Source: Eledone cirrhosa (Eukaryota). Taken from it: DNA of 64,000 bases. The position numbers and the translations under genes were made by a program. Each line of letters opens with the position of its first letter. The first letter of the stretch is position 1. Below are positions 10,466-61,717 of this stretch, in pieces. The stretch is from contig OZ024742.1 of assembly GCA_964016885.1 (NCBI GenBank), positions 310,868,001 to 310,932,000 on the forward strand, written 5' to 3'. The notes beneath the pieces were generated by a model. It ran no database searches. It had not been told where the DNA came from and saw nothing but the letters and a program-made list of their open reading frames with translations.

Positions 10466-10530
<65 letters not shown>

Positions 10531-10599: not shown

Positions 10600-11194
10600 C
10601 ACACGCATATATTTATTTTTTTTATTTTCAATTGAGTTCTTAACACGTTGGATTGATAATGTTTTCGAAAAAACTAATTAACCCGCGTGTATATTATTTT
10701 TTTCCTCCTTTCGTGGATCGTAGTTGTCTCCCCTTCCCGCTTCGTGTGGCTATGATACTTCCTCAGTCAAAAACTGCTGGAATTTCAAATTTAGCGGTCA
10801 TTCGAGGCGAGAAGGAGCAACTTAACAGACACGATTTTTGACTGCGGTAAGAATTTCTTTCTTATATCAAAGTTTAATGGGCTTCCATTGATGATTTATA
10901 AGCGCCCACCTAAATATATTCTTACATGAATATATATTAGGCTTCTACATAAACTGGAAATATTCTCCCAACTTGTAGAAAACTTATAATGAAACAATTG
11001 TTTGGAAAGAGAGATATACTTTAACTTTAATTATATCTCATAAAATAATACAACTGGCTTTTCCACATTATACATATTGTTAGCACCCCAAACACTTAAA
11101 TTGGGTTTATATTTAAATATAACCGAATGTTTGTTGAGTGAGATGGTTACCAGTCAGAGTTTAGCTTTAAACTATCTCTGTTATTGTATTAAAT

Positions 11195-21100: not shown

Positions 21101-24100
21101 TTTAGGGTTAGGGCTAGGTCTTTTGTTAGGGTTAGGGTAGCGTTAGGGTTAAAATTTAGCGTTAAATTTAGCGTTAGGATTAGGGTTAGGGTTAGGATTA
21201 AAATTTAGGGTTAGGGTTACGGTTAGTGTTAGAGTTCGGATTAAATGTTAGGGTTAGGGTTAGGATTAGGGTTAAAAATCAGGGTTAGGTTTAGGGTTAG
21301 GGTTGGGATTAGGGTTATCGTTAGGGTTAAATTTTAGGGTTAGGTTTAGGTTTAGGGTTAAAAGTTAGGGTTAGGATTAGGGTTAGTGTTAAAATTTAGG
21401 GTTTAGCTTAGTGTTAGGTTTAGGGTTAGTGTTCGGGTTAAGGTTAGGTTTAGTGTTAGAGTTAGGTTTAGAGTTAGGTTTTTTAGGGTTAGGTTTAGGT
21501 TTAATAGTTAGGGTTAGGGTTAGGGTTAGGGTTAGGATTAAAAGATAGGGTTAGGCTTAGGGTGGGGTTAATGCTAAAAATTAGGGTTAGGTTTAGGGTT
21601 ATGTTTGGGATTAGGGTTATCGTTAGGGTTAGGGTTAGGGTTAAAAGTTAGGGTTAGCGTTAGGATTAGGGTTAGGGTTAACATTTAGGGTTAAGCTTAG
21701 GGTTAGGGTTAGGGTTAGGGTTAGTGTTAGGGTTAAAAGTTAGGATTAAGGTTAGGTTTAGGGTTGTGGTTGGCGTTGGGTTTTGGGTTAGGGTTAGGGT
21801 TAGGATTAAAAGTTAGGGTTAGGGTTAGCGTTAGGGTTAGCTTAAAAGTGAGTGTTAGGTTTAAAAGTTAGGGTTAGGTTTAAATGTTAGGCTTAGTATT
21901 AGGGTTAAAATCTAGGGTAAGGTTTAGGGTTAAGGATAGGGTTAGGGTTAGGTTTAAATGTTAGGGTTTGGGTTATTGTTAGGGTTAGTTTTAGGTGTAG
22001 TGTTAGGGTTAGGGTTAGGGCTAGGGTTAAGGTTAAAAGTTAGGGTTCGGGTTAGAGTTAGGGTTATGTTTAGGGTAGCGTTAGGGTTAAAATTTAGCGT
22101 TAAATCTAGCGTTAGGGTTAGGGTTAGGGTTAGGGTTAGGATTAAAATTTAGTGTTAGGGTTACAGTTAGGGTTATGGTTAGTGTTAGGGTTAGGGTAGG
22201 GTTAGTGTTATGGTTAGTGTTAGGCTTAAATGTTACGTTTTGGGTTAGGGTTAGGGTTCAGGTTAGGGTTAAATGTTAGTGTTAGTGTTAGGGTTAAAAC
22301 TTAGGGTTAGGGTTACAGTTAGAGTTACGGTTAGGGTTAGTGTTAAAAGTTAGGGGTAGGGTTAGGGTTAGGGTTAGGCTTAAATGTTAGGTTTAGGGTT
22401 AGGTTAGGGTTAGGGTTAGTGTTAGGTTTAGGGTTAAAAGTTTGGGTTAGGGTTAGGTTTAGGGTTAGAGTTAGGGTTAAACGTTAGGGTTAGGTTTACG
22501 GTTATGATTAGGGTTAGGGTTAGCGTAATGATTAGGGTTACGGTTAAAAGTTAGGGTTAGGGTTAGGTTTAGGATTACGGTTAGTGTTAGGTTTAGGGTT
22601 AGGGCTAGGTTTAAATGATATGGTTAGGGTTAGTGTTAGGGTTAGGGTTAGGGTTGAAATTTAGGGTTCGGGTTAACGTTAGGGTTAAAATTTAGCGTTA
22701 AGTTTAGGGTTAGGGTTATGGTTATGATTATGGTTAGGGTTAAAATTTAGTGTTAGGGTTACAGTTAGGGTTATGGTTAGTGTTAAAACTTAGTGTTAGG
22801 GTTAGGGTTAAGTTTAGTGTTAATGTTAGGATTAAAAGTTATATTTATTGTTATGGTTAGGTTTAGGGTTAGGGATAAAATTAGGTTTAGTGTTATGGTT
22901 AGAGTTAGGGTTAGGGTTAGGGTTAGGGTTAAAATTAAGGTTAGGGTTAGGGTTAGGGTTAAAATATAGGGTTAGAGTTAGGGTTAGCGTTAGAGTTAGG
23001 TTTATGGTTAGGGTTAGGGTTAGGGTTAGGGTTCGGGTTAGCTTTAGGGTTAGAGTTAGGGCTAGTGTTACGGTAGGGTTATGGTTAGGGTGATGGTTAG
23101 GGTTAGGGTAGCGTTAGGGTTAAAATTTAGCGTTAAGTTTAGCGATAGGGTTAGGATTAAAATTTTGGGTTAGAGTTACGGTTATGGTTAGGTTTAGGGT
23201 TAGGGTTAGGTTTAGGGTTATGGTTAGGGTTAGGCTTAAATGTTAGGTTTAGGGTTAGGGTTAATGTTAGGGTTAGGATTAGGGTTAGTGTTAGGGTTAA
23301 ATGTTAGGGTTAGTGTTAGTGTTAAAAGTTAGTGTTAGGGTTACAGTTAGACTTACGGTTATGGTTAGTGTTAGGGTTAGTGTTAAAAGTTAGGGGTAGT
23401 GTTAGGGTTAGGGTTAGGCTTAAATGTTAGGTTTGGGGCTAGGGGTAGGCTTAGGGTTAGTGTTAGGTTTAGGGTTAAAAGTTTGGGTTAGGGTTAAGTT
23501 TAGGGTTAAACGTTAGGGTTAGATTTACGGTTATGAATAGGGTTAGATTTAGCGTAATCGTTAGGGTTACGGTTAAAAGTTAGGGTTAGTTTTAGGTTTA
23601 GGGTTACGGTTAGTGTTATAGTTAAAACATAGCGTTAGGGCTAGGGTTAGGTTTAGTGTTAATGTTGGGTTTAAAAGTTAGGGTTAGGGTTAGGGATAAA
23701 ATTAGGTTTAGTGTTATGGTTAGGGTTAAGATTAGGCTTAGGGTTCGGTTTAGGTTTAGGGTTAAAAGTTAGTGTTAGGGTTATGGTTACGTTTAGTGTT
23801 AATATTAGGGTTAAAAGTTAGGGTTAGGGTTAGGGTTAGGGATAAAATTAGGTTTAGTGTTATGGTTAGAGTTAGGGTTAGGGTTAGGGTTACGGTTAGG
23901 ATTAAAATTATGGTTAGGGTTAGGGTTAGGTTTAAAATTTAGGGTTAAAGTTAGGGTTAGAGTTAGGGTTGTGGTTAAGGTTATGGTTATGGTTAGGGTT
24001 AGGTTCAGGGTTAGGGTTAGGGCTAGTGTTACGGTTAGGGTTAAGGTTAGGGTTAGGGTTAGGGTTAGTGTTAGGGTTAGGGTTAGGGTTAGGGTTAGGT

Positions 24101-27100
24101 TTAAAAGTTTGTGTTAGGGTTAGAGTTAGGGTTAAGGTTAAAATTTAGGGTTTCGTTTTAAAATTAGGCTTAGGGTTAGGGTTAAAAGCTAGGGTTAACT
24201 TTAGGTTTAGGGCTAGGGTTAGGGTTAGGGTTAAATGTTAGGGTTAGTGTTAGGGTCAAAAGTTAGGGTTAGGGTTACAGTTAGAGTTACGGTTATGGTT
24301 AATGTTAGGGTTAGTGTTAAAAGTTAGGGGTAGTGTTAGAGTTAGGGTTAGGGTTAGGCTTAAATGTTAGGTTTAGGTTTAGGGGTAGGGTTAGGGTTGG
24401 TGCTAGGTCTAGGGTTAAAAGTTTGGGTTAGGGTTAAGTTTAGGGTTAGAATTAGGGTTAAACGTTAGGGTTAGATTTACGGTTATGAATAGGGTTAGAT
24501 TTAGCGTAATCGTTAGGGTTACTGTTAAAAGTTAGAGTTAGTGTTAGGTTTAGGGTTACGGTTAGTGTTAGGGTTAGGGTTAGGGTTATGGTTATGGTTA
24601 GGATTAAAAGTTAGTGTTAGGGTTACAGTTAGGGTTAGAGTTAGTGTTAGTGTTAAAACATAGCGTTAGGTCTAGGGTTATGTTTAGTGTTAATGTTAGG
24701 GTTAGGGTTAGGTTTAGGGTTAGGGATAAAATTAGGTTTAGTGTTATGGTTAGGGTTAGGTTTAGGGTTAGGGTTAGGTTTAGGGTTAAATGTTAAGGTT
24801 AGGGTTAGGGTTAGGGTTAGGGTTAGGGTTAGGGCTAGGGTTAGGGTTAGGGTTAGGGTTAAATGTTAGGGTTAGTGTTAGGGTTAAAAGATAGGGTTAG
24901 GGTTACAGTTAGAGTTACGGTTATGGTTAGTGTTAGCGTTAGGGTTAAAAGTTAGGCTTAGGGTTAAAATTTAGGGTTAGGGTTAGGGTTAGGGATACGG
25001 TTAAAAGTTAGGGTTAGTGTTAGGGTTAGGATTAGGATTAGGGTTAAAAGTTAGAGTTAGGGTTAGTGTGAGGGCTAGGGTTAGTGTTCGGGTTAGGGTT
25101 AATACTAAGGGTTAGGTTTAGGGTTAGTATTAGAGTTAGGGTTACGGTTGGGGTTAGGATTAGGGTTAGTATTAAAAGTTAGGATTAAGGTTAGGGTTAG
25201 TATTAGGGTTAGGCTTAAAAGTTACGGTTGGTGTTAGTGTTAGGGTTAGGGTTAAAAGTTATGTTTAGGTTACGGTTAGGCTTAGGGTTAGGTTTAGGGT
25301 TCAAAGTTAGCGTTAAATGTTAGGGTTAGGGTTAGGGTTAGGTTTACGGTTACAAGTTAGGATTAGGGTTAGGGTAAGGGTTAGGGTTAAAAGTTAGGGT
25401 AAGGGTTAGGGTTAGGGTTAGGGTTAGGGTTAGGGTTAGGGTTAAAAGTTAGGGTTAGAGTTAGGGTTAGTGTTAGGGTTAGGGTTAATGTTAAGATTAG
25501 GGTTAAAAGTTAGGGTTAGAGTTAGAGTTAGAGTTAGGGTTAAAAATTAGGGTTAAATGTTAGGATTAGGGTTAGGGTTAGGGTTAAGGTTAGAGTTAGG
25601 GTTAGGGTTAGGGTTAGGGTTAGTGTTAGGTTTAGTGTTAGGGTTAGTTTTCAAAGTAAGGGTTAGGGTTATGCTTAAAAGTTAAGGTTTGGGTTCGGGT
25701 TAAAAGTTAGCCTTAGGGTTACGATTATGGTTAGGGTTAAGTTTAGGGTTAAATATTAGGGTTAGGTTAGGGTTATGTTAGGGTTAGGTTTAAGGTTAGT
25801 GTTAGGGTTAAAATTTAGGGTTAACGTTAGGGTTAGGATTAGGGTTAGGTTTAAAAGTTAGGGTTAGGGTTATGGTTAGTGTTAGGGTTAGGGTTAAAAG
25901 TTAGGGTTAGGGCTAGGGTTAGGGTTAGGGTTAGGTTTACGGTTAGAGTTAGTGTTAGGATTAGGGTTAGGGTTAAAATTTAGGCTTAGCGTTAGGGTTA
26001 GGCTTGGTTAGGTTTAGGGTTGGGGTTAGGTTTAAAAGTTAGGGTTAGGGTTAAGGTTAGGGTTATGGTTAAAAGTTAGGGTTAGGGTTAGTGTTAGGGT
26101 TAGGGTTAGGGTTAGTTTTCAAAGTTAGGGTTAGGGTTAGGTTTAGGGTTAGAGTCAGGGTTAAAATTTAGGGTTAGAGTTAGGGTTAGGGTTAAGGGTA
26201 TGGTTAGTGTTAAAAGTTAGTGTTGGGGTTAGGGTTAGGGTTAGGGTTAGGGTTAGTTTTATGGTTAGGATTAGGGTTAAAATTTAGGGTTAACGTTAGG
26301 GTTAGGATTAGGGTTAGGGTTATAATTTAGGGTTAGCGTTGTGGTTATTGTTAGGGTTAGGGTTAAAAGTTAGGGTTATGGTTAGGTTAGGGTTAGGGCT
26401 ATCGTTAGGGTTAGGGTTAGGATAAAAAGTTTAGGGTTAGGGTTAGGGTTAGGGTTAAATGTTAGAGTTAGAGTTCGTGTTAAGTTTAAAAGATAGGGCT
26501 AGGCTTAGGGTTAGGGTTAGGTTTAGGGTTAGGATTATCATTAGGGTTAGGGTTAGGGTTAAAATTTAGGTTTAGCGTTAGGGTTAGGGTTGGTTAGGGT
26601 TAGGCTTATGTTTATAGGGTTAGGTTTAGGTTTAAAAGTTAGGGTTAGGGTTAATGTTAGGGTTAGGGTTAGGGTTACGGTTAGGGTTAGTGCTAAAATT
26701 TAGGGTTGGGGTTAGGGTTAGGTTTAGGGTTAGGGTTAGTTTTTAAAATTAGGGTTATGGTTAGGTTTAGGGTTAGGTTTAAGGTTAGGATCAGGGTTTA
26801 AATTTAGGGTTAAAAGTTAGGGTTAGGATTAGGATTAGGGTTAGGGTTAGTGTTAGGGTTATGGTTAAAAGTTTGGGTTAGGGTTAAGGTTAGGGTTAGT
26901 GTTAAACGTTAGGGTTAGGTTTATGGTTAGGGTTAGGGTTATCATTATTGTTAGGGTTACGGTTAAAAGTTAGAGTTAGGGTTAGGTTTAGGGTTACGGT
27001 TAGTATTATGTTTAGGGTAAGGGCTAGGTTTAAATGATAAGGTTAGGGTTAGAGATAGGGTTAGGGTTAGGGTTGAAATTGAGGGTTAGAGTTAGCGTTA

Positions 27101-28013
27101 TGGTTAAAAGTTATCGTTAAATTTAGGGTTAGGGTTATGGTTAGGTTTAGGGTTAAAAGTTAAGGTTAGGGTTAATGTTAAAACTTAGTTTTAGTGTTAG
27201 GGTTAGGGTTAGGGTTAGTGTTATTGTTAGGGTTAAAAGTTTGGGTTAGGGTTTGGGTTATGTTTAGGGTTCTGGTTAAAAGTTGGGATTAGGATTAGGG
27301 TTAGGGTTAGGGTTAGGGTTAGGGTTACAAGTTAGGGTTAGGTTTAAATGTTTGGTTTAATAGCTATGGTTAGGTTTAGGGTTAGGGCTAGGGTTAGGGT
27401 TAAATATTAAGGTTAGGGTTAGGGTTAAAAGTTATGTTTAGGGTTACATTTAGGATTACGGTTAGGGTTCGGGTTAGTGTTAAAAGTTAGGGTTAGGGTT
27501 AGTGTTAGGGTTAGGGTTATGTGTAGTGTTAGGTTTAGAGTTAGGGTTAGGGTTAAAAGTTAGGGTTAGGGTTAGAGTTAGGGTTATGGTTAGGGTTATG
27601 TTTAGGGTTAGGGTTAGTGCTATTGTTAGGGTTAGTGTTAGTGTTAAAAGTTAGGGTTAGGGTTAGGGTTAGTGTTAGGGTTAGGATTAGGGTTAGGTTT
27701 AAAATTTAGGGTTAGGCTTAGGGTTAGGTTTAGGGTTAGTGTTAGGGTTAGGGATAGGTTTAATCTTAGGGTTAGGGTTAGGGTTAGAGTTAGGGTTAAG
27801 GTTAGGGTTAGGTTTAGGGTTAGATTTAAAAGTTAGGGTTAGGTTGAGCGTTAGGGTTAAGGTTAGGGTTAGGGTTAGGGTTAGGGTTAGGGCTAGGGCT
27901 AGGGCTAGGGCTGTGGCTTGGGCTGGGGCTGTGGCTCTTGCTGTGGCTGGGGCTAGGGCTGTCTCTAACGTTAGGGCTAGGGTTATGTTTAGGATTAGAA
28001 TTAGGATTAGGGT
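12130..28013 (+). repeat. Interstitial degenerate telomeric (TTAGGG)n array, ~15.9 kb
   Basis: G-rich strand on + throughout, with variants TTAGTG, TTACGG, TTATGG, TTTGGT and 7-mers TTAAAAG/TTAAATG. Non-telomeric DNA on both sides. Confidence 0.97.
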
Positions 28014-32284: not shown

Positions 32285-32354
32285 AATTAGATACAAATAA
32301 TTTATCTTACATGTTTTAATATATACCAGTGGGAGAAAAAACCCAAGATGTAAA

Positions 32355-32566
32355 TAATTGTTTCTACTTTTGGCACAAGGCCAGCAATTACACAGTGCAT
32401 AACTGGTACTTTATTTTATCGACCCCGTAAGGATGAAAGGCAAAATTAACCTCGGTGGGATTTGAACTCAGAATGGCAAGAACCGTAACTCCATACGTCA
32501 AAGCATGGCGTCCGACCCTCTACCGATACTGTCAATCCACCACCCTGATGTACCAATCCACCACCC
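32355..32566 (-). mobile_element. S1 SINE with duplicated 5' tip
   Basis: Full S1 match, flanked by the direct repeat CCCAAGATGTAAATAA at 32342-32357 and 32564-32579. Confidence 0.88.
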
Positions 32567-33787: not shown

Positions 33788-33889
33788 GCCGAGGTTGACT
33801 TTGCCTTTCATCCTTACGGGGTCGATAAAATAAAGCACCAGTAATGCACTGGGTAATTGCTGGCCTTGTGCCTAAAGTAGAAACAATTA
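33788..33889 (+). mobile_element. 5'-truncated S1 SINE
   Basis: Matches the 3' half of S1. Confidence 0.85.
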
Positions 33890-34225
33890 TGTGTTGAAAC
33901 TTCGCACTTGTACATAACATTATTCTCGGTGGGTCGGCGTCAGGGACCCAACAATTGCTATTAGATATTGGAGTGTTTGTAGATTTGAGGTTTATTTATA
34001 AGATTATTGAAGGTATATAGAGAAATATTTATACTACATAGAGTAAGAGTGTTATCTGTATCATTAATCTGTTCATTATTTTTAGTATCACTATTGCTAT
34101 TCATTGTTTAAAACTATAGGAGGTATGGTTTGCATGTTATAATTCACGAGAATTTCATCTTCAGATTTATGGCTATAAATTTTCCTGTTTATTATATATA
34201 TATATATGTGTGTTGGGGGGGGGGG

Positions 34226-34292: not shown

Positions 34293-35229
34293 ATTTCTTT
34301 ATTAGCCACAAGGGCACAAAAGAAGGGGACAAATACAAATGGGGAGTTTACATACAGGTATATGAAAATAAAACTATTAATACAATAACAAATAACAATT
34401 GAAATCCCCAAAAGGGGGGAGGTGTTACACAGGGGTTGTACACACCCCGGAAAAATGTACAACCCTCATCTCCAGGAGCACCAAGAGTGAGTACTCCCTT
34501 CCTCTTTTTCCTCAACCTACAAGCTTATATAGAGAGAAGGCCCAACCACTCGGGCCATCTTTGTCACATTCACCCACCTTTTATAAAATTTGCTGGGGCA
34601 CAGCACCTCTCTCTCCATCCTGATTCTTCTTCCACAATGATATTTGAAAAAACGAATCAGTTGCTCGCCGGAGAGAAAGGTGTCTGACCTCAGCCCTTTT
34701 AACCTCGTCCACCATATAACCTCTTTCACTATAGCCATAACACATAGGAAAACCGCCTCTCCCTCGTTTTTTAAGGAGGGTGGCGGTTTGATCATGACAA
34801 TGGACTCGGTGGTCAACTAGATTGGTCCCACCCGCGACAATAGTCGTTCTACATAACCCCACAGGTCGGTAACGGCTGGGCAGTGTACAAATGCGTGTGC
34901 GACGGTTTCCTCGTCGCGCACGCATCTCGGACAGATCTTTTTCGAGGGGTCCCTACCCGGGCGCCCGTGTCTGTAGAGCTTGTCTCTAACTGGTAGAGCT
35001 CCTCGGTAGCACTGCCAGGCCAGGGACTTTTGAAAGTTGTCCATTGGTCCTGGGCGGAAGGTCCTACCGAACAGACTGGCCAGTTCGTCCTCCTCTACGC
35101 CTAGAGTTTCTCCGAGCGTGTTATCGCACTTGCTGCGGACCAACCCTCTATATAATGTCGAAGTGGAGTCTCCACTGATGGCCGGGTCTGTTTGCCAGAG
35201 GACTGTGAGCGCCTGAGCACATTCGATAT
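34291..35229 (-). mobile_element. Tx1/L1-like LINE 3' fragment, copy 1
   Basis: WQCYRGALPVRDKL..CPRCVRDEETVAHAFVHCP (zf-RVT CCHC finger). The 3' UTR ends GCTAATAAAGAAAT, with (GATA)n on both sides. Confidence 0.85.
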
Positions 35230-35310
<81 letters not shown>

Positions 35311-35312
<2 letters not shown>

Positions 35313-36432
35313 TTCTTTATTAGCCACAAGGGCGCAACAAGAAAAGGGGACAATACAAAGACATGCCGGGGATTTTACATACAGTCGTGTAAAAAATATA
35401 AAAACAAACAATTTCAACAATCGAAATCCCCAATAGGGGGAGGCGCCACAAATGGGTTGTTTAATACCTCGTCGATAGAACAACCCTCAACTCCAGGAGC
35501 GTGTTGTGCAAGTGCTCCTTTCTTCCTTTTGCTCTCTTCCTCAACCTACAGGCTTATAAACAGAGAAGGCCCAATCACTCGGGCCATTTTCGCTTCATTT
35601 ACCCACCTTTTAGTAAATTTACTGGGGTGCAGTGCCTCTCTCTCCACCCTGATTCTCCTGCTAAAGTGATACTTAAAGAAGGGAATCAATTGTTGTCCGG
35701 AGAGAAAGGCATCTGTCCTCAGTCCTCTCAACCTCGTCCACCATATAACTTCTTTCACCATAGCCACCGTACAGAGGAAAACCGCCTCTCTTTCGTTTTT
35801 GAAAGAGGCTGGCGGTTTGATCCTTACTATGGACTCGGCAGTCAACTGGATTTGTCCCATACGCGATAGCAGTTGTTCTGCATAGTTCCACAGGTCGCTT
35901 ACGCCCGGGCAGTGTACAATTGCGTGCAGAACTGTTTCAATGTCCTGCGCACATCTTGGACACGTCCTCTTGTCCATAGGTCCCGGGCGGAAAGTCCTAC
36001 CAAACAGACTGGTGAGCTCATCGTCTTCGACGCCAGAGTCTCTCCGAGCACGTCGTCGCCCTTGTAACGTACAATCCCTCTATAGAATGTCGAAGTGGAG
36101 TCTCCACTGATTGCTGCGCCCGCTTGCCAGAGGACTGTGAGCGCCTGAGCGCATTCAATGTGCCAGGCGCACATCGTTTTCGGTCTTTTCTTCACCCAGG
36201 ACTTCAGCTCCGTTAGCGAGACGATCTGTGGGAAAGCCTGTCTCACAAACGGTGCCAACACCGGTTGGGGGTCGGTGAGGAATACCTGGAGATGCATTCC
36301 CAGCCCTCCGTTGGAAGGGTGCTGACAGCAGACGGATCTCCTCACCAGCGGAGCCTGCTTCTTCCACAGAAACTGGAAGAGCATGCGTTCCATCTTGGCG
36401 AGGTGTTCACGGGGACAAGGCACGACAGTCAG
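35311..36432 (-). mobile_element. Tx1/L1-like LINE 3' fragment, copy 2
   Basis: MERMLFQFLWKK..VRRSVCCQHPSNGGLGM and CPRCAQDIETVLHAIVHCP. Same 3' end, internal deletions, (GATA)n on both sides. Confidence 0.85.
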
Positions 36433-36461
36433 AAAAAGAGAGAGAGAGGTGAATAGATAGG

Positions 36462-36507
<46 letters not shown>

Positions 36508-36762
36508 TATTTCTTTATTAGCCACAGGGGCACAAAAGAAGGGGACAAATACAAAGGGGGAAGTTTACATACAATAAAAACGTGTAAAATGTTATCACAA
36601 ATGGAATTTAAAAAGTTAGTCGATTTTCCCCAATAGAGGGAGACAGTTTATATGGGTAACACATACCTCCGAAAAAAAATGTGCAACCCTCATCTCCAGG
36701 AGTACGAAGAGCTTGTACTCCTTTCCTCTCCTCCTCCTTTTCCTCAACCTACAGGCTGATTT

Positions 36763-39595: not shown

Positions 39596-39839
39596 CTTCC
39601 CAATGGATACAACAAATACAAATAATCTAATAATTTGTACGGAATTTTTACGAACTTCGCTCGTAGCTCAATGATTATTTATTATCTAAATTTTCATTTG
39701 ATATTCGAGAACTTAAAATCGAAACGGAAAGGGTTCTATGTCATTTAGTATGACTGCTCACCGTTGTGTCACCTTAGTGATCTTTGTAGAAATATCGAAT
39801 ATAGGAATTCTAACAAGCCACTCCAGGTCTATATATATA

Positions 39840-39983
39840 TAAATGGAAAAAAATGAAATTTCATTTCTCACGCTTAATACGGCTGATACTTAAATATAAG
39901 TATGTATGCGTATATACATATATGTATACAGACGTACAGTAGTATATATGTATACAGACGTGCAGTATATACATACATACATG

Positions 39984-40069
<86 letters not shown>

Positions 40070-40543
40070 ATGGGTTTACCGAACATTTATTATAATGCTC
40101 GGTTTGTTTGTAAACAAACAGCCCGAATTATTAGCCGTACAGTGTTCAGCAACCATCGTTGCCCTTTTGTTCAACACTGACAAAGAAACGATGAACTAGT
40201 TTCTAGCTTATTAGCTGTCATCAGCACCGTATACCATCCTGTCATTCGATTGAACGTTTGAAAGTATATGCATATTAACGGCTGAGCAGCCTAATTTGCA
40301 TATCGAGTGAGTTAGTCGACCGGGTGTACCGAAAACGATAAATGGAAAAAACGAAATTTCATTTCTCACTCTTAGTACGGCTGATACTTAAATATAAGTA
40401 TGTATACGTACATACATATACGTATACAGACGTACAGTAGTATGTATATACATACATACATGCACATATATATATATATATGTACGTATGGGTTTACCGA
40501 ACATTTATTATAATGCTCGGTTTGTTTGTAAACAAACAGCCCG
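39840..40543 (-). mobile_element. Family B repeat, second locus (~1.4 units)
   Basis: AAATGGAAAAA at 39841 and 40340 (period 499 because of an expanded internal TA tract). Same terminus as the 8276-8822 copy, with (TA)n on both sides. Confidence 0.78.
40188..40230 (-). ncRNA. Minimal type I hammerhead ribozyme (family B copy 2)
   Basis: Minus strand: ACGGTG-CTGATGA-cAGCT-aata-AGCTa-GAAA-CTAG-TT-CATCGT. Confidence 0.8.
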
Positions 40544-40545: not shown

Positions 40546-40627
<82 letters not shown>

Positions 40628-40635
<8 letters not shown>

Positions 40636-40994
40636 ATACTTGGGGAGGGTCATATTTGCGTAATATTGCCAGAATTAATAACAGAACACACTCACTGTTT
40701 GGTTGGTTTTCGCTTCTCGCTGTCTTTTATATCTGCGATCTAACTTACTCGGTCCTCAATGTTGCCATTGACTGACCGACGGTCAAAAATAATACAGATA
40801 CAATATAGACACAAACACATATATATAGTTTACATAATTTACATAAATCTTTCGTTGCACATCTGCAACATCGTCAGGAGGAAAAAATATAACACCACTG
40901 ACGATGTTGCAGATGTGCAACGAAAGATTTATGTAAATTATAGTATAACAATATCTGTTTCGACACACGATTTCATATAAAAAACCTCGCTAAA

Positions 40995-41026: not shown

Positions 41027-41208
41027 ACGAAGGAAATGTGGTAAAGAACCAGGTGGACCATAACGCACCAAAGTACTCAATACTTAGGGTAGAAGAGTGG
41101 GTAATAGGAACCAGTAAGACCCCGACGGCTGAGCTCAAACCGTTTCGACGGCTAATTCGAATTAGCCGTCGAAACGGCTTGAGCTCAGCCGTCGGGGTCT
41201 TACTGGTT

Positions 41209-41213
<5 letters not shown>
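41026..41213. mobile_element. Fold-back cassette (110-bp palindrome 41104-41213 plus tail)
   Basis: Loopless centre AATTCGAATT with one mismatch. A diverged relative lies at ~43000-43130 (+). Flanked by (TA)n. Confidence 0.65.
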
Positions 41214-41253: not shown

Positions 41254-41584
41254 AAATCACAAGGTACGTCCTTTGTAGTTGAGTGAAACATGTAGAAACC
41301 AATTAATTAATGTATTAATTAATGCATTGAACCTTGGTGATATTTTTCATTTTTATATATGGTGTGATTTGATAATCAACGATAAACGGAAATCTGTAAT
41401 TTGGATTTATCTGTGAACTGTCTTTCCTCAATCTTGATATTGACAAAGTTACATTAGAGCTTTAAATATCTAAATGTCTTATACAGTTGTATCATCAACT
41501 TATATAATTTACCCTATATATATATAGAGAGAGAGAGATATTTATATATATAGATATTTATATATATAGATATATATATATATA

Positions 41585-42381
41585 GATATTTTATTTGAGT
41601 GACCCGAATCTTCCTGGTCGTTCTTTTTCGGCTGCATGGGTGATTTTAGGCATAATCTTTGTGTGTTGGTATTTTAACGATAGTTATAGCTCTGATTTAT
41701 CTGAATTATTGAGCCCTCTGCCACTCATGTCGGATTTGTTTATCGTAAATTCGTGAGCTGATTTTCCGATACTCGATTATTCTATTATATTTAGCTCTAG
41801 ACATAGCTATTGACCAGTTAATTTTATTGTTCATTTTTTGTCGATTCTATTGAATGATGAATAGCTCCTGTTTATTTTAACATGTCTATCGAGCACTCTG
41901 ATTCGATATGTGTTTTCCACATTACCGATAATTTTTCGCGAATATAGAGGTTATCTCCCTTGCTGGACTCCATGTGCGTTCTAGCTAAAGTTAACTTCTT
42001 TATCCGTTGGACGTAACCCGTTGATAAAGTGTTCCGGTCCATCCGCTCCCTAGAAGTCTTATATATTTATGTGGGCTGATAGAGGGCGGATTAAGGAATT
42101 GCAGAAACCCAAGAAGCTAGATTTACCACCTTTCTAGTGGGTCCGGGTAAGTTTTTTACATTCATATAAATTATTGATTTATTGATATTTTATTTGAGTG
42201 ACCCGAATCTTCCTGGTCGTTCTTTTTCGGCTGCATGGGTGATTTTAGGCATGATCTTTGTGTGTTGGTATTTTAACGATAGTTATAGCTCTGATTTATC
42301 TGAATTATTGAGCCCTCTGCCACTCATGTCGGATTTGTTTATCGTAAATTCGTGAGCTGATTTTCCGATACTCGATTATTC

Positions 42382-42389
<8 letters not shown>
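41585..42389 (+). mobile_element. Retrozyme-like HHR repeat, family C (599-bp unit plus ~205-bp repeat)
   Basis: 41585-41790 is repeated almost identically at 42184-42389. HHR at 42016-42148, TA-rich flanks, no ORF. Confidence 0.75.
42016..42148 (+). ncRNA. Type I hammerhead ribozyme, U3-A8 variant with extended stems II and III
   Basis: ACCCG-TTGATAA-aGTGTTCC..ATCCGCTC..GGGCGGAT..GGAATTGCa-GAAA-CCCA..CTAGA..TCTAG-TGGG-TC-CGGGT. Confidence 0.78.
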
Positions 42390-42461
<72 letters not shown>

Positions 42462-42467
<6 letters not shown>

Positions 42468-42755
42468 AAATAGAATTTCGCTTCAAGCATAGTTTTATAC
42501 AATATGTATAAAAATTTCGTATCTCCAAAGAAATACGGTTTTAGGAAGCCGTTAGATATGCAAACACCGGGGGGGCTAACGCCCTCTGGTGATGTCCAGC
42601 AGAAGCAAGGGACCAGACGATGGCCAGTTAAGCCTGAAATGCATAGACGGTTGTCCCCTTGCTTCTGCTGGACATCATTAGAGGGCGTAAGCCCCCCGGT
42701 ATTTACATAGCTACGGCTTCCTAAAACCGTATTTCTTTGGAGATACGAAATATTT

Positions 42756-42763
<8 letters not shown>
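42462..42763. mobile_element. Fold-back cassette with a degenerate HHR core in its spacer
   Basis: ~110-bp imperfect arms at 42502-42613 and 42653-42763. Spacer CAGACGA-tGGC-cagttaa-GCCt-GAAA-TGCA-TA-GACGGTT; lies in (TA)n. Confidence 0.65.
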
Positions 42764-42821
<58 letters not shown>

Positions 42822-43992: not shown

Positions 43993-45181
43993 CTGTACTC
44001 ACTGAATCATATATACTTAAGACGCTGTACTCAGTGAATCATATATACTTAAGACGCTGTACTCAGTGAATCATATATACTTAAGACGCTGTACTCAGTG
44101 AATCATATATACTTAAGACGCTGTACTCAGTGAATCATATATACTTAAGACGTTCTACTCAGTGAATCATATATACTTAAGACGCTGCACTCTGTGAATC
44201 ATATATACTTAAGACGCTGTACTCAGTGAATCATATATACTTGAGACGCTGTACTCAGTGAATCATATATACTTAAGACGCTGTACTCAGTGAATCATAT
44301 ACACTTAAGACGCTGTACTCAGTGAATCATATATACTTAAGACGCTGTACTCAGTGAATCATATATACTTAAGACGCTGCACTCAGTGAATCATATATAC
44401 TTAAGACGCTGTACTCAGTGAATCATATATACTTGAGACGCTGTACTCAGTGAATCATATATACTTAAGACGCTGTACTCAGTGAATCATATATACTTAA
44501 GACGCTGTACTCAGTGAATCATATATACTTAAGACGCTGCACTCAGTGAATCATATATACTTAAGACGCTGCACTCAGTGAATCATATATACTTAAGACG
44601 CTGTACTCAGTGAATCATATATACTTGAGACGCTGTACTCAGTGAATCATATATACTTAAGACGCTGTACTCAGTGAATCATATATACTTAAGACGCTTT
44701 ACTCAGTGAGTCATATATACTTAAGATGCTGTACTCAGTGAATCATATATACTTAAGACGCTGCACTCAGTGAATCATATATACTTAAGACGCTGTACTC
44801 AGTGAATCATATATACTTGAGACGCTGTACTCAGTGAATCATATATACTTAAGACGCTGTACTCAGTGAATCATATATACTTAAGACGCTTTACTCAGTG
44901 AATCATATATACTTAAGATGCTGTACTCAGTGAATCATATATACTTAAGACGCTGCACTCAGTGAATCATATATACTTAAGACGCTGTACTCAGTGAATC
45001 ATATATACTTGAGACGCTGTACTCAGTGAATCATATATACTCTAGACGCTGTACTCAGTGAATTATATATACTTAAGACGCTGTACTCAGTGAATCATAT
45101 ATACTTAAGACGCTGCACTCAGTGAATCATATATACTTAAGACGCTGAACTCAGTGAATCATATATACTTAAGACGCTGTG
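43993..45181 (+). repeat. 32-bp minisatellite, ~37 copies
   Basis: Unit ACTCAGTGAATCATATATACTTAAGACGCTGT with no spacers. About 2.7 inverted copies lie at 45280-45368. Confidence 0.95.
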
Positions 45182-46090
45182 CACACATACAGATGAAAAA
45201 ATTGAGAATCTACACATAGATATGCATACACCTATACAGACATGTTCATACAATTAGATACACCCGGACATGCGTAGATACTGAGTACAGCGTCTTAAAG
45301 TATATATGATTCACTGAGTGCAGCGTCTTAAGTATATATGATTCACTGAGTACAGCATCTTAAGTATGATAGATAAATAGATAGATAGATAGTTAGATAG
45401 ATAGATAGATACTTATGCGTTTGGTTTACAAGTATGAAATTTTGCACACCCTGCATATTTTAATGCAGCATGACAAAACGCTTACAACTTGACTGACTTA
45501 ACAGAAGCTAAATAATGGAATGAAAATAAACCACATAGACTGTCACACACTCACATATAATTCATAGATATTCGCATACCTATTAGTCTATCAAATGCAA
45601 CATCAAACACATACTCTCATAATATACTCACAAACAGATACTGAATTGTACAATCTATCAATTTCGATGACAAGAGAACGGACGGGAAAATAATGCATAA
45701 AAAATTACGCCATAGTTGACTATTTGTTTTTTTATGAAGTAATATTTTTGTAGGTTCCATTGAACAATTTTTTCCAGACGCCGTTAGCCTGTTTCATGTG
45801 CCTGTCTTTATATATAGTGCCATATGTTAATACTAATGTTAGTGTGTTAAATTAAGGAGAAAATAGTTGAAATGAGCTAGGGTGATGTTTGTGTTGCCCG
45901 AAAGGAATGGAAAATCCAGCCCTTTCCAGACATTATTTTGCAATGTTACATCAATTTGTTTTTGTTATATTCTTGTAATTTACATTAAACTTTTGCTTTG
46001 CTTTTGATTGTATGTATGTATGTATGTATGTATGTATGTATGTATGTATGTATGTATGTATGCATGTATGTATGTATGTATGTATGTATG

Positions 46091-48410: not shown

Positions 48411-50832
48411 TTATACTTCTCTTAGGTCAGTGTTGTTTGTTTGGGTGTTGTTGTTATTCCATTTATTCTTTCTGTTTAGCCTTAGTCTTCTAATTTCTAT
48501 TTCACTGGCCTCTCTGATTTGCCTATAGGCTGGGTCATTTCTATGTTTAGATATTATTCTAATTTCTATGTTGTCTATGTTACCGTTATGTTGTTGTCTA
48601 GCATGTTCGTATAGTACTGACCCGTTTTTTCGTCCTTTTAGTTCCCCCCAGTGATGGTCTATCCTTTCACCTATGCTACGAGCTGTCTCACCTATGTATG
48701 TTGTTGTCATGTTTCTGCAAGTACCCTCTGTACATCTTATGCTATAGACTACGTTTCTAGTTTTACAGTTTATCCGGGGGTTCACCTTACATATGATACA
48801 TTTCCTATTGGTACAGTGGGTTTTCTTAAAAGGGTAGGTTTTGCTGATCAGGGATTTTATGGTGGTTCCTGGCTTTTCTACCACCTTTATTTTTAAGTGG
48901 GTCTTTCTCAGGGCCTTTCTACACTGGTTAGCTAATTTCCCTCCAGGGGTGGCGTCCACAAACATGACACTCTGGTATCTCTGGTTGTCGTACCGTAAGG
49001 TGGCTTTCCATATCTTATGTCTAGCCCTATCTAAGCTATTCCATGATTTGCTCCTGCGTTATGGGCAAATTCCTTTCATGTCTAGTTCTATGAGGGTCTT
49101 ATACTTTTCCATGGCTCCTTCGTATACTCTGACTCTGTCTCTTTGGTTGTAGCCAGAGAACTGCATTCGGTTGATGAAGTGTTGGATGTGTCTTTCCATT
49201 TCTGTTGGGTCGCACATGCGGGACACATTCTTCATCACTCGTACCAAATCTGCGATCAGAATATTAAACTTAGCACTACTGGACATTGCTGAGTTTTTGA
49301 GTATCAGGTATTTGGAGGCCATGGGTTTAGCATAGTGTCAGTGGAGAATTTGGGCTCTCTCGTCTATAGTGTTAATCCAGAGTTCTGTGTCTAATACAGG
49401 TAGTCTATTGTTAGGGTGTTTGGAAGGGAAGTCGATAGTTACAGTTATACTCTGGTGTATATGAATTAGCTATCTGCTGGATGCTTTCCATCGTGCTACG
49501 TTCTAAATCAAACTTGTTAGTGCTCTCTAGTGGGGGTGTTCTTATAACTATATTGATATCGTCTACATAACGAGAGTACATGATGAGGTCTATGGAGCTT
49601 TCATTAAGGAGATCTTTAAGTCTCCTTTCCCACCATACCATGAAAAGCTTGGCAACATCACCAGCTATGCTGACGCCGATGGCTGCTCCCTCATTTTGGG
49701 TGTAGATTTTCTCGTTGAACTTAAATATGTGGCCCTTTAGGGTAGTTTTGATACTAGCCCCTATTGCATGTGCGACCATTTTTCTTACCTGATCATTGTT
49801 TTGGGGGGTCCGTATAGCTTTGGTCCACCCAATCCACCTTCCCATGGGAGTCTTTTTTGCCATTGAGGTTATGGTGGGGGGGGGGTCTACCTCTTATAGG
49901 TCTACTAGGGCAGAAACATCTAAGGTCATGGCTGTCTAGGTAGTCAGTGTCGTAGGTAAGTCTAAGTAGGAGGCCCAGTTCGTCTGTGTCGACGTCGCAG
50001 AACTCCACCTCACTCTCAATGATCATCTCCACACATCTTTTCACAGCAAAATCAATGTTAATGGATGGGTAAAGTGACACCACATCCATGCTGCCTATTA
50101 TGCAGTTGGATAGGCTCCTGTTTTTGTTGCACTCACTGATTCTGCTGAGGAGGTCCTCTGTACTGTCACATACATCTGGGGACATCTTGATTATGGGGCG
50201 TATAACCATTGAGAGGAAGTAGGAGATCCTGTAGTTGCTAGCTATATTAGCTCCGCATACTGGTCTTGTTGGTGGTCCTGTTGTCGGGTCGTCGACTGTC
50301 TTGTGGTCTTTGCGGAGCCCATACAAGGGTGGTATGCCATTGTTAGACGCCTGGAAGTTGTTGGCAGTGCGTCTTCTTGGCTTTAGGATGTCAGTCCACA
50401 TCATCATGTGAGCGTTGAGGATTTTTTCTCTCCCATCGTGTGTTTGTTGTGCAATTTCTCTCGTGTTGGTGATGTGGGGTTGCATAGCCTCGATGTAGTT
50501 CGGCATGCTATCTATTGACATCCTACCAGACTTATCTGTGGGTAGACACACTACCTCACCATCCCTTGTGCGCTGCTTGAGGCTAACCAAGCCTTCTACA
50601 GGTTTCCTCCCAAGTTGGTGAACTGTGCCTCTGTCTCGTCATCTATTTGTTGTGGTATGCAAACTCTTTTATTAAAGAGTAACCTCGTAGGATAGATATT
50701 ACCCATCTTATATGTTTTGTCAGCTGGGTTGAAAAATAGTTTCTCTAAGGGGTTTTCATTATATCTATCGTCATAGTTGTGTGTTGCTATTATTGTTATC
50801 AGGGTGGTTGTTGTTGTTTCTATCATTAGCAT
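48411..50832 (-). pseudogene. Penelope-like polyprotein (reverse transcriptase + GIY-YIG endonuclease), frameshifted
   Basis: PTDKSG, LYGLRKDHK, PTRPV, MDVVSLYPSI (49793-50590); QNEGAAIG, SRYVDDI (49411-49863); thumb (49059-49322); CxxxxCxxC linker, NVVYSIRC..C, YIGET (48411-48965). Confidence 0.92.
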
Positions 50833-51402
50833 TATTATTATTGTTATGATTGCTAGATGTATTGTTGTTTACTTCACCGTTGTTGTTGTTGTTGTTACTG
50901 TTATTTCTACCATTGTGGTTGTTACTTTTATTATGTTTCTTGTTTTTGTTGTGTCTATCATTGATGTTGCCACATGTACTATTTCCATTATTACCACTGT
51001 GGTTATTGTTGTTGTTGTTCGTATTGTTACCGTTATTACTACTGTGGTCGCTGCTGCTGTGTCTGTGGTTAATGTTTCTATTATTATTATTATTGTGGTT
51101 GTTGTTGTTCTGTCTATCGCTAGTATTATTACCATTATCACTATTTCTCACTTTCCTGCCATTGTTATAGTTATGGCTGTTATTTCTATACTCAGAGTTA
51201 TTGTTTATATTACTACTACCGTTATTATTGTTGTTGGACCGAGTAAGTTAGATTACCGATATAAAAGACAGCGAGAAGCGAAAACCAACCAAACAGTGAG
51301 TGTGTTCTGTTATTAATTCTGGCAATATTACACAAGTATAACAATATTTGTTTCGACACACGATTTCATATAAAAAACCTCGCAAAACTAATTCATCGCC
51401 GC

Positions 51403-52929
<1,527 letters not shown>

Positions 52930-52930: not shown

Positions 52931-53277
52931 CTCTCTATATATATATTATATATGCAAAAGTTCTATTTAAAATTGTTGGGATACAAGTAAATATTTTTAT
53001 AACTGATATAAAGCACTCGACAAGTATTTGGAGTAGATATACGATATTAATAAATGGAAACTATATTTATAAAACCATATTTATTTCATTATACATATTT
53101 CAGGGATACCAAATTAAATTATGGTATGCCTTCACGTCAAAGCTTATTTGTAAAACTGTTATATATTGTATTTTGTCTGATGAAGGCATACCATAATTTA
53201 ATTTGGTATCCCTGAAATATGTATAATGAAATAAATATGGTTTTATAAATATAGTTTCCATTTATTAATATCGTATA
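52930..53277. mobile_element. Fold-back pLTR cassette (arms 53037-53134 and 53181-53277)
   Basis: ~98-bp essentially perfect inverted arms, a one-sided tail with AGCACTCGA at 53012, and TA flanks. Confidence 0.75.
53169..53233 (+). ncRNA. Type I hammerhead ribozyme
   Basis: TATTTTGT-CTGATGA-AGGcATACCA..TGGTATcCCT-GAAA-TATGTA-TA-ATGAAATA. Confidence 0.8.
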
Positions 53278-53313
53278 TATATTATATATATATATATACA
53301 TATATATATATAC

Positions 53314-54622: not shown

Positions 54623-54807
54623 GGTGGATTGGCAGTATCGGTAGAGAGTCGGACGCCATGCTTTCCAGCATAGTTACGTCCCTTTACGATCTGAGTTCAA
54701 ATCCCGCCGAGGTTGACTTTGCCTTTCATCCTTACGGGGTCGATAAAATAAAATACCAGTAATGCACTGGGTTATTGCTGGCCTTGTGCCTAAAATAGAA
54801 ACAATTA
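54623..54807 (+). mobile_element. S1 SINE, near full length
   Basis: S1 match, with TSD ATTATGTATACT at 54611-54622 and 54804-54815. Confidence 0.9.
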
Positions 54808-55485
54808 TGTATACTTCCACCTAGACAAATTTGTTCTTGAGACATCCTTGCTACTTTTCTTCTATATCACATCACTGACCAGAACTTAACTTGCTGACAT
54901 TTACAAGATTGCTGGATAATTTCGCTTGATAAAACTAATCTTTATCACTAGCCAATAAGATGGCCACTTGGACAGCTAGAAATAGCAACCGAATGTCCGT
55001 GTTCGCTCTCTTATCAAATCTTACCTACATAAAAAGAACAGTAATGAACCATTTTGTATAGTTGTTCTAAAGCAAAACTTTGATTATACTTTGTGTGGTA
55101 TTTGATCATAGATTTGTTTGATCCAAGCAGACCTGGGACTAAACCACTATCATTTTTATTATCAGAATATCAAGGTTTAGAAATAACTTTAAAAGTTCAT
55201 AGCTATTTTTATTTCACATTCCCTCCAGTTCACTTAGCTGGAAAAATAGGAGTTATATCTGTAATTCAGAGGGCTAGCTTGGTAATACACTGTAACGCTC
55301 TGAAAGCTACGTGAAGTATGAGTACACGTGTCGGTGGAATACTCAGCCACTTACGCAGTAACTTCAAAAGAAGAAAGTTCCGTTGATCGTATCAACTGGA
55401 ATACTTGTAGTACAACCGACGGAGGTATTATTTAGTATATTGTATTGATATGGTTTTCGCCCTTTATTTTTTATCACGATTCTTT

Positions 55486-55645
55486 GTCGGACGCCATGCT
55501 TTCCAGCATAGTTACGTCCCTTTACGGTCTGAGTTCAAATCTTGTTGAGGTTAACTTTGCTTTTTATCCTTACGGGGTCGATAAAATAAAGTACCAGTAA
55601 TGCACTGGTTATTTGCTGGGCTTGTGCCAAAAGTAGAAACAATTA
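55486..55645 (+). mobile_element. S1 SINE, 5'-truncated
   Basis: S1 match from GTCGGACGCC to GAAACAATTA. Confidence 0.88.
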
Positions 55646-55781
55646 TTAGTAATAATATAAGTTTTGTGAGTGATGCTGTTGTTATGATGATTTCCTTTGT
55701 CGCTAATGTTGCTTGCAATGTCGCTTATCTTTATGGGACGAACATTGTTTTTCTCTCTCGTCTACAATTGTTTCTTTCATA

Positions 55782-56650: not shown

Positions 56651-56742
56651 CAGAGAGAGAGAGAGGGGGCTGGCAGACAGAGACAAATGTCTTCTACAGA
56701 ACTGTTTCATTCGTATGAAAGTCACTTCTATATATATATTAA

Positions 56743-56931
56743 TAATTGTTTCTACTTTAGGCACAAGGCCAGCAATTACCCACTACATTACTGGTACTTT
56801 ATTTTATCGACCCCGGAAGGATGAAAGGCAAAGTTAACCTCGGCGGGATTTGAACTCAAACCGTAAAGGGACGTAACTATGCTAGAGAGCATGGCATCCA
56901 ACCCTCTACCGATACTGCCAATTCACCGCCC
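56743..56931 (-). mobile_element. S1 SINE, full length
   Basis: S1 match with TATATATATTAAT on both sides. Confidence 0.9.
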
Positions 56932-57099
56932 TGTATATATATTAATGCTTATACTTTACCAATGTATTGAATATCTTTATTAACTGTGGTTACCCCTGAT
57001 AATCCTCATATATACATTTTTATGTAGTTGAGGTAGTGACGGTGGAAGAGTGGTTCAAAAAGTCAGGATTCCATTAATTTACTAAAAACCTCTATTAAA

Positions 57100-58840: not shown

Positions 58841-58905
<65 letters not shown>

Positions 58906-58910
<5 letters not shown>

Positions 58911-59094
58911 GTTTCTACTTTAAGCACAAGGCCAGCAATTACCCAGTGCATTACTGGTACTTTATTTTATCGACCCCGTAAGGATGAAAGGCAAAGTCAA
59001 CCTCGGCGGGATTTGAACTCAGATCGTAAAGGGACGTAACTATGCTGGAAAGCATGGCGTCCGACCCTCCACCGATACTGCCAATCCACCGCCC
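58906..59094 (-). mobile_element. S1 SINE, full length
   Basis: S1 match. Confidence 0.9.
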
Positions 59095-59286
59095 TTACGG
59101 AGTTGACGGACCCAGCATATTTATTAATATATATATATATATATTAACACTCATACATACATATTCAGACGGATTCTTGATATAATTCGGTGTATTATAA
59201 CACAAAACTGATATATCAGCTAACCTTACTAAATTCCTACTGATACAATTTTAAAACTTTTAAATTCTTTCATTAAGAACGGCTTC

Positions 59287-59390: not shown

Positions 59391-61066
<1,676 letters not shown>

Positions 61067-61507
61067 AATTAACAAAAAATGGAGTTAAAGACTCACATTA
61101 ATCCCCTATAATTTAATGAGCTCAAGGAATAGATTCCGGACACTTTATAAATCAGCATATAGAGAAAGGTACACATAGAGATATGTGTTTAATCATAGGG
61201 AATCGAAAACCACCAGAGTGACGAACATATTAACTACGGAAGGAATGGTGAATAGAAATCAATTAAAAAAAATATATTAAAGTGCAATGTATATATATCC
61301 GGCTGTAATTCATTAAAAAAACAACACACACAAACTTACACACACATACACACATTTCATTTTATATTTTAGTCATGTACCTACAACAAAAAATCTCGCT
61401 TACCAATCCTGGGTTCTAACTCCATTTTTGTTCCTATAGATAATTATTTGACCAGGGTTACACATAACTGTGTGTCATTTGTACATACATGCTGATTATT
61501 AAAATAA

Positions 61508-61717
61508 GGATTGGCAGTATCGGTAGCACGTCGGACATCCTGCTTTGCGGCATAGAGTTGCATCCCTTTACGTTCTAATTTCAAATCCCGCCAGGGTTAG
61601 CTTTGCCTTTCATCCTTACGGGGTCGATAAAATAAAGAACCAGTTAATACTTTGGGTTCGATTTAATCGACTTTCCCCTCCCCCAAATTACTGACCTTGT
61701 GCCTATATAAGAAACCC
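61508..61717 (+). mobile_element. S1-related SINE with a longer 3' part
   Basis: Same head and body plus GGTTCGATTTAATCGACT..CCCCTCCCCC. TSD TTATTAAAATAA at 61496-61507 and 61718-61729. Confidence 0.88.

Follow-up and report, generated by a model that had tools for sequence, protein, structure and literature searches.

Positions 41585–42389 of the 64,000-nucleotide stretch of Eledone cirrhosa DNA analysed here (contig OZ024742.1; hereafter the window) hold an insertion, termed family C, that is probably a non-autonomous Penelope-like element (PLE) of the non-LTR retrozyme type, built from a 599-nt unit and inserted by target-primed reverse transcription. The unit has a GC content of 37%, is T-rich on the ribozyme strand and contains a type I hammerhead ribozyme; the insertion forms a partial tandem (pseudo-LTR) within (TA)n, as in Penelope-type elements. 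The retrozyme-like label that the initial annotation gave to this non-coding unit is reasonable, and no LTR, PBS or PPT was found, judging by the hallmarks of the repeat ends. The label does not extend to activity: an element counts as an active non-LTR retrozyme when two or more units follow one another and every one of them has a complete hammerhead (Li et al. 2026, 10.64898/2026.07.22.740005), and the locus has 1.34 units and one hammerhead. The locus can be a daughter copy of a retrozyme-type family, not an active member.

Structure, flanks and age of the insertion

The insertion and its flanks comprise the following parts:

41585–42389 (+): entire non-coding insertion of 1.34 units, made up of one 599-bp unit and an overlap of 206 bp
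41585–41790 (+): 5' copy of the overlap, pseudo-LTR-like, the second pass being truncated at its 5' end; 205/206 identity with 42184–42389
41791–42183 (+): unique part of the unit, 393 bp, with the sole hammerhead of the element
42184–42389 (+): 3' copy of the overlap, its final 5 nt in phase with the (TA)n target
41515–41591 (no strand): 5' flank, disturbed (TA)n that includes a 16-nt unit repeated 3.5 times
42385–42464 (no strand): 3' flank, a perfect (TA)40 microsatellite, the presumed target

The two overlap copies form a direct repeat at an offset of 599, and their only mismatch is A41654 versus G42253. This is the single difference that had been annotated, in a terminal redundancy that measures 206 bp and not the 205 bp given at the time. 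The insertion has (TA)n on either side, and both of its ends fall exactly at (TA)n. From the way in which the last 5 nt of the overlap continue the (TA)n phase, we infer microhomology at the start of reverse transcription, unlike the initiation site of purified Poseidon, which is not homologous to its target (PMC11167929). The 16-nt tandem at the 5' junction (41536–41591) carries the first 7 nt of the element and may represent a stutter of junction synthesis.

Divergence between the overlap copies is 1/206, or 0.5% (95% interval 0.01–2.7%), compared with 3/175 in the overlap of another partial tandem in the window, family A (Fisher p = 0.34), and 7/137 in that of a third element, B1 (Fisher p = 0.008); an inverted pair near 6.6 kb differs at 1 of 138 positions. 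Provided that one event made both overlap copies, a recent insertion is a fair reading of these sequences, and reverse-transcriptase error or gene conversion could be the source of the single difference in 206 bp. The initial annotation had called the insertion very young: it is young, yet not measurably younger than family A.

The direct repeat does not identify an LTR element. LTRs begin with TG and end with CA, a TGG start stands behind the first repeat and purines precede the second; here the repeats neither begin with TG nor end with CA, repeat 1 is not followed by a TGG start, and purines occupy 9 of the 20 nt before repeat 2. Nor does the element have the arrangement of a plant LTR retrozyme or TRIM, with a type III hammerhead within both LTRs, as its single hammerhead is of type I and lies outside the repeats. 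We also rejected a tRNA-derived SINE, having found no tRNA genes and no match in the element to the Pol III promoter-box consensus (box A or B), and a viroid-like or rod-like agent, given that the minus strand of the element has no hammerhead and that the 599-nt circle is barely better folded than shuffled sequences (−141.9 kcal/mol, z = −1.8, 4/100 shuffles as good; 64% versus 61% paired). Searches of the 599-bp unit against plasmid and phage collections gave no match, and blastn and nhmmer detected no further copies of it within the 64-kb window.

Alternatively, a longer, autonomous Penelope-like element might have left two fragments of its 3' end here, 206 and 599 nt in length and both 5'-truncated, joined as a partial tandem; the length of 599 would then be accidental and the hammerhead would be the pseudo-LTR ribozyme of that element. 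We consider this improbable. Truncated partial tandems of this sort are common among PLE insertions (PMC8557442), the hammerhead core has PLE-type features, and the family C junction (41790/41791) was observed once within the window. The element nevertheless shows no coding remnant. Its largest stop-to-stop frame has 64 amino acids and no homologue candidate among the proteins of near length that were compared, none of seven frames matched Pfam, and tblastn of the element against the local PLE protein pieces gave no credible match. A 61-aa frame had two matches, both to giant proteins aligned in 12 short stretches at 37–39% identity, which we judged to be repeat artefacts. These negatives are weak evidence, because a long 3' UTR would yield them too. 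Also against two chance pieces, the unit junction of family B recurs in two independent copies (B1 and B2), which differ by 9% and have an identical junction; the repeat unit of family B is therefore real, and by analogy 599 bp would be the true unit of family C.

The surrounding DNA is rich in (TA)n, (CA)n and tetranucleotide repeats. It includes a 16-kb degenerate TTAGGG-type hexamer array (12130–27910) and a 32-bp minisatellite (43993–45367) with 37 copies in one orientation and then about three in the other. Long palindromes lie between (TA)n tracts at 6263–6865, 9986–10525, 40823–40954, 41104–41213, 42425–42814, 53034–53281 and 60651–60783; several of them contain hammerheads, and they resemble the inverted 5' copies seen in Penelope-like insertions. 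A dispersed repeat family, some 200 bp long and probably a SINE, has at least 10 copies (1553–1769, 4126–4210, 8833–8985, 32348–32547, 33788–33892, 54623–54813, 55486–55662, 56729–56945, 58892–59095 and 61504–61658), one of which adjoins the 5' end of family A. Two further retroelement fragments were noted, one encoding a reverse transcriptase (RT) with DUF6451 (8976–9921, +) and the other a tandem piece containing zf-RVT (34817–36564, −).

The hammerhead and its predicted folding

The ribozyme and the segments predicted to interact with it are as follows:

42016–42148 (+): type I hammerhead from the pattern scan, C17 = 42143, predicted cleavage after C42143
42016–42020 with 42144–42148 (+): stem I, five Watson-Crick pairs
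42021–42027 (+): first half of the core, with U3 and A8
42028–42103 (+): stem II region, 76 nt between the core halves
42104–42107 (+): GAAA, second half of the core
42107–42142 (+): stem III, 36 nt, non-palindromic, −8.8 kcal/mol as a hairpin
42141–42143 (+): GUC site, with C17 at 42143
42008–42041 (+): candidate 5-bp pseudoknot, 42008–42012 upstream of stem I with 42037–42041 in the stem II internal loop
42199–42218 (+): competitor stretch, with a copy at 41600–41619, pairing with the 3' strand of stem I

The pattern scan recovered the annotated hammerhead with its cleavage site at C42143. All core nucleotides of the type I consensus are present (N3-UGA-N7-N8-A, GAAA and a UH site), the 3–8 pair is Watson-Crick, and stems I and III have five Watson-Crick pairs each; in the predicted fold, three helices surround the core and the ends close in stem I. 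Motifs with at least five pairs in stem I, five in stem III and three in stem II were found in 2 of 200 dinucleotide-shuffled 64-kb windows, and the one such motif in the real window is that at 42016–42148. Rfam gave no hammerhead match at the gathering score in the window, where it missed all other hammerheads as well. On the element alone it returned two chance matches (E = 1.6 and 5), and in an E-value scan of 28000–64000 the best 150 of the 243 matches listed were driven by microsatellites only.

The core of this hammerhead looks PLE-type and its periphery unusual. Stem II begins with two opposed extra A's (42028 and 42103), which the initial annotation had missed, and continues through a G-C pair, a weak base rich in G-U pairs, a 5 × 3 internal loop and a long stable hairpin (z = −2.9, 4/300 shuffles equal or better). 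The closing pair, G42029–C42102, is flanked by the extra A's and has a predicted probability of 0.46 to about 0.5; the literature searched gave no data on a stem II base with two opposed A's. In stem III, five basal pairs are followed by a bulge and then five to six more pairs (z = −1.67, 19/300 shuffles equal or better).

Predicted folding depended strongly on context. Stems I and III had probabilities of 0.85–1.0 in three tight constructs, and stem I one of 0.25 in a fourth, slightly longer construct. The active fold made up about 16–21% of the ensemble of the isolated ribozyme, 16% of that of nascent RNA ending at 42160 or 42190 with pairs limited to 150 nt, and 0.2–0.3% of that of the whole RNA or circle. 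Without the span limit, the probability of stem I was at most 0.23 in all 24 longer contexts, nascent ones included, which weakens the case for a co-transcriptional folding window. According to these predictions, the stretch at 42199–42218 would switch the ribozyme off in the circle or full RNA. The whole motif folded only modestly better than shuffled sequences in two sets (z = −1.5, 17/200 as good; z = −2.0, 14/300). Folding as a monomer, as the initial annotation proposed, is thus reasonable for the isolated ribozyme and predicted to be largely blocked in the full RNA, and real activity in context is doubtful, given the weak base of stem II and the rarity of the active fold in the whole RNA or circle.

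A dimer is the other form in which such ribozymes may act. Self-pairing of two stem III regions was predicted at −20.7 kcal/mol, versus 2 × −8.8 for two hairpins, and no second ribozyme lies near 42016–42148 as a dimer partner. On the folding predictions, this ribozyme needs no partner to form stem III and is probably slow or gated. As it is single and lies in the unique part of the unit, a transcript of the locus would be cut once at most and would give no 599-nt monomer or circle by itself; with the one hammerhead outside the overlap, a 599-nt circle would need another, multimeric source locus.

It is unlikely, in our estimate, that the hammerhead, either of this copy or of the family as a whole, has lost all or nearly all catalysis and persists as a protein-binding or structural signal. 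The base of stem II, with its opposed A's and its G-U pairs, favours such a loss, the best tolerated mismatch at this position being said to be U-U (PMC3088659), and so does the out-competition of stem I in long contexts; in addition, cleavage of a PLE hammerhead needed the protein of the element and was dispensable for insertion in vitro (PMC11167929). What speaks against a dead ribozyme is that the core, the compensated U3-A8 pair and the five Watson-Crick pairs of stems I and III are all intact, and that PLE hammerheads often have extra nucleotides at the two positions (PMC8557442 supplement).

Pairing of 42008–42012 with the internal loop of stem II could bring stems I and II into contact, a role that pseudoknots have in about 40% of hammerheads (PMC3088659). 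The predicted duplex has −7.8 kcal/mol, compared with −1.3 for the alternative. This candidate was identified post hoc: 16 of 587 12-mers of the unit would match, as would 0.8% of random ones, which puts the chance of such a pairing at 1–3%.

The 3' strand of stem I also contains what we take to be a consensus 5' splice donor (42146–42152, +), with the donor beginning at 42147, 3 nt past the cleavage site. This 7-mer has four occurrences in 96 kb (both strands, telomeric array excluded), one of them at 42146–42152, and was missing at 11 of 11 other cleavage sites compared, three of which were slightly off register. Possible splice acceptors are found at 42198 and 42248. Introns can occur in PLE pseudo-LTRs, the end of one in Drosophila virilis adjoining helix I, and AU-rich sequence past stem I is general in PLE motifs (PMC4209133).

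Related elements and the reverse-transcription template

The initial annotation had set this hammerhead apart from the others nearby by its long stem III, U3-A8 core, GUC site and long stem II. We tabulated 12 other cores, picked by hand and leaving out the four cores of an RT-encoding family (40877−, 40898+, 48167− and 60259+), the U4C-type core at 52732 and, from the second family A copy, a mutated core. Stem III had only 6–8 nt in all 12, forming a perfect palindrome in eight. The other three traits recurred: U3-A8 in 3/12 (7050−, 53530− and 53614+, two of the three with a decayed stem I), GUC in 1/12 (7050−) and stem II regions of 43–97 nt in 3/12. A long stem III is the only trait that separates 42016–42148 from the tabulated hammerheads, and the RT-encoding family may have a longer stem III as well. 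The hammerheads at 7050 (−), 53530 (−) and 53614 (+) are minimal, with a palindromic stem III, and the last two form an inverted pair. The core at 52732 (+), hammerhead-like with C at position 4, lies in one arm of a long inverted repeat (51618–52830) that is related to an element at 32013; the other arm has no core.

Four other elements bear on family C:

409–1568 (−): family A element, unit 985, one hammerhead, partial tandem
8266–8822 (+): family B1 element, unit 420, one hammerhead, partial tandem
39839–40543 (−): family B2 element, one hammerhead, partial tandem
48411–50638 (−): broken Penelope-like ORF for RT and GIY-YIG, in four frames, without sequence similarity to the 599-bp unit

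The hammerhead of family A (602–717, −) has a 97-nt stem II region and a GUU site, and a second, shorter family A copy (10601–11194) has a broken 3–8 pair. The RT + GIY-YIG element lies 6 kb from the insertion and represents a type of enzyme that could mobilise the unit. Among proteins, it is most similar to one from Octopus vulgaris (74% identity across 90% of the query). In its endonuclease we found a CX2-5CxxC linker together with a CCHH-like pattern, both absent from Hydra elements, which led us to reject the Hydra clade; by the clade descriptions in PMC8557442, they point to a Neptune or Nematis type. Fragments of this element occur at 59391–60506 (+), 40547–40954 and 51236–51342, and it has an inverted 5' piece, hammerhead-like cores without clear stems I and III, and an Asn-rich low-complexity frame upstream of the ORF (50771–51247). 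Comparing the 599-bp unit with its termini gave a low-complexity match at best in blastn (E = 0.03) and none in nhmmer.

Elements A, B1 and B2 have the same layout as family C, namely a single hammerhead, a second copy that is partial and a 3' end that enters (TA)n, and their 3' ends fall at an A/T-rich point of the unit. This recurrence in three other elements of two unrelated families counts against the insertion being a single-copy local duplication, or an assembly artefact by microsatellites, with a hammerhead-like motif present by chance or as an old relic. Such an origin is very improbable: only one copy occurs in 64 kb and near-identical repeats by long (TA)n are hard to assemble, but the motif is rare by chance (2/200 shuffled windows), the overlap copies have one real difference and both ends lie exactly at (TA)n.

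Each of the four partial tandems ends, at its 5' side, before a second cleavage site would be reached: 18 nt before it in A, 40 nt in C, 68 nt in B2 and about 134 nt in B1, where the boundary is soft; other insertions adjoin A and B2 at their 5' ends. Under uniform stops, the joint chance of four such stops is 0.034, and the overlaps lie nearer this ceiling than a uniform distribution would place them (mean 0.75, p = 0.04, n = 4). The pattern, observed post hoc in four elements, weakly suggests linear templates with a 5' end made by the ribozyme; limited processivity could also cause it.

We favour, with a slight lean, a linear multimer with a 5' end set by hammerhead cleavage over a circle as the template. 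In the mechanism that we propose, a source locus elsewhere in the genome would carry two or more units, and an autonomous Penelope-like RT/GIY-YIG protein would nick a (TA)n tract. Reverse transcription would start from a fixed, A/T-rich position lying 246 nt downstream of the ribozyme, copy one full unit through an uncut or re-ligated hammerhead and end 206 nt into the next unit, 805 nt in total and 40 nt before the next cleavage site. The ribozyme may fold during RNA synthesis and would be blocked once the next 50–70 nt emerge. An efficient monomeric ribozyme would imply passage via a re-ligated circle, whereas a slow or gated one would allow a linear multimer; gating fits the folding predictions, and would serve either route. 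Partial tandems, inverted 5' copies and (TA)n targeting are all PLE traits, and (TA)n is preferred by octopus Naiad and Hydra families (PMC8557442). In PLEs, reverse transcription begins at AT-rich nicks and from an internal position of the RNA, the main substrate being uncut RNA (PMC11167929).

A classical retrozyme cycle, which the initial annotation implied, would depart from this explanation in the template and in the efficiency of the ribozyme only: an efficient monomeric hammerhead would release 599-nt monomers, a host ligase would circularise them, and RT would copy 1.34 rounds. We regard this as possible, though not as the probable course of events. It is favoured by the stable stem III and the possible pseudoknot, and a ribozyme predicted to be off in the circle (fraction 0.003) would leave circles intact. 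Circular RNAs are reported from coral, mussel and axolotl units (PMC7229834), and copying beyond one unit from circles has been proposed for PLEs (PMC4209133). Against circles, none of the four elements has tandem hammerheads and all four stop before the second cut site; the circle is only slightly better folded than shuffled sequences, and the base of stem II is weak.

The linear-template reading has a fuller version, which we consider improbable as a whole. It would hold that an animal Penelope-derived element has a large-helix-III hammerhead with a stem I–II pseudoknot that cuts as a monomer, briefly during transcription; that a strand of its stem I doubles as a splice donor, making cutting and splicing mutually exclusive; and that cleavage sets the 5' boundary of a linear template, capping pseudo-LTR overlaps at the cleavage site, and does not feed a rolling circle. 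Among predicted retrozyme dimers of Xenopus, eight of nine did not cleave (10.64898/2026.07.22.740005), which counts against our preferred reading.

Comparison with known systems and significance

Family C resembles metazoan non-LTR retrozymes (PMC7229834; 10.64898/2026.07.22.740005) in being a non-coding unit some hundreds of base pairs long with GC below 50% and one type I hammerhead per unit, without LTR, PBS or PPT, and in occurring alongside PLEs. Solo monomers are common in these elements and family lengths span 51–972 bp (10.64898/2026.07.22.740005), although the invertebrate examples in PMC7229834 have units of 150–450 bp, compared with 599 bp here. Family C differs from them in that its copy has 1.34 units with one ribozyme, and in its U3-A8 core with extra nucleotides.

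Parallels also exist with animal PLE hammerheads (PMC4209133; PMC8557442 File S2), which are likewise of type I with a 5-bp stem I, an enlarged stem II, a U3-A8 variant, an extra nucleotide after A9 followed by G-C, and U-rich and AU-rich flanks, in elements that target (TA)n and form partial tandems. PLE hammerheads conserve this nucleotide after A9 together with the G-C that follows, and about 1,300 Schistosoma motifs have U3-A8 (PMC4209133), a natural covariant (PMC3088659 section 8); in File S2 of PMC8557442, hammerheads commonly carry extra nucleotides on both sides. The periphery is where family C departs: its stem II and stem III regions have 76 and 36 nt, versus a canonical 4 bp and 1–2 bp (PMC4209133). 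Animal PLE hammerheads, by contrast, have no stem III or a tiny palindromic one and are thought to depend on dimers; in 26 of 26 animal rows of File S2, stem III does not exceed 4 bp and its loop does not exceed 3 nt (PMC8557442). Family C, with its 36-nt, non-palindromic stem III, is not a minimal dimer-dependent hammerhead of this type, and unlike animal PLE elements it has no RT or endonuclease ORF.

Large helices III are known from fungal and protist PLE hammerheads (PMC4209133) and from Chlamys-3_cBra (PMC8557442 File S2), which are also of type I with variable helices I and II; the Serpula hammerhead cleaves as a monomer at 0.16 per min in 1 mM Mg2+ (PMC4209133). These systems are non-animal and mostly endonuclease-deficient or algal, whereas family C is animal, non-autonomous and (TA)n-targeting. 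Non-autonomous Chlamys elements such as MRC1 are similar as non-coding PLE derivatives with pseudo-LTRs and head-to-tail copies, and those of the MRC1 type were earlier mistaken for LTR elements (PMC8557442). They are, however, algal and generally have 3' sequence in common with an autonomous family, and none was found for family C in the window. Plant LTR retrozymes (PMC7761336) share the size range (600–1000 bp), direct terminal repeats and a hammerhead, but theirs is of type III inside both LTRs, with 4-bp TSDs, whereas that of family C is of type I and external to the repeat, in an element lacking LTR hallmarks. For invertebrates, most type I motifs are reported as monomer cleavers (PMC7761336).

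Earlier work already covers the element class and units of comparable size, as well as U3-A8 cores and monomer-competent hammerheads of invertebrates, so that novelty is limited to the shape of the ribozyme and the host group. In the literature consulted we found no stem III so large for an animal PLE-type motif; the supplements of retrozyme surveys may hold cases. The role of hammerheads in PLEs is described as unclear (PMC8557442; PMC7761336), partly because the animal ones barely cleave in vitro. Family C, being young, animal and predicted to fold alone, is a convenient test substrate. The genome also seems to contain several families of this kind with one layout, so that the position of their 5' ends relative to the cleavage site bears on whether the template was circular or linear.
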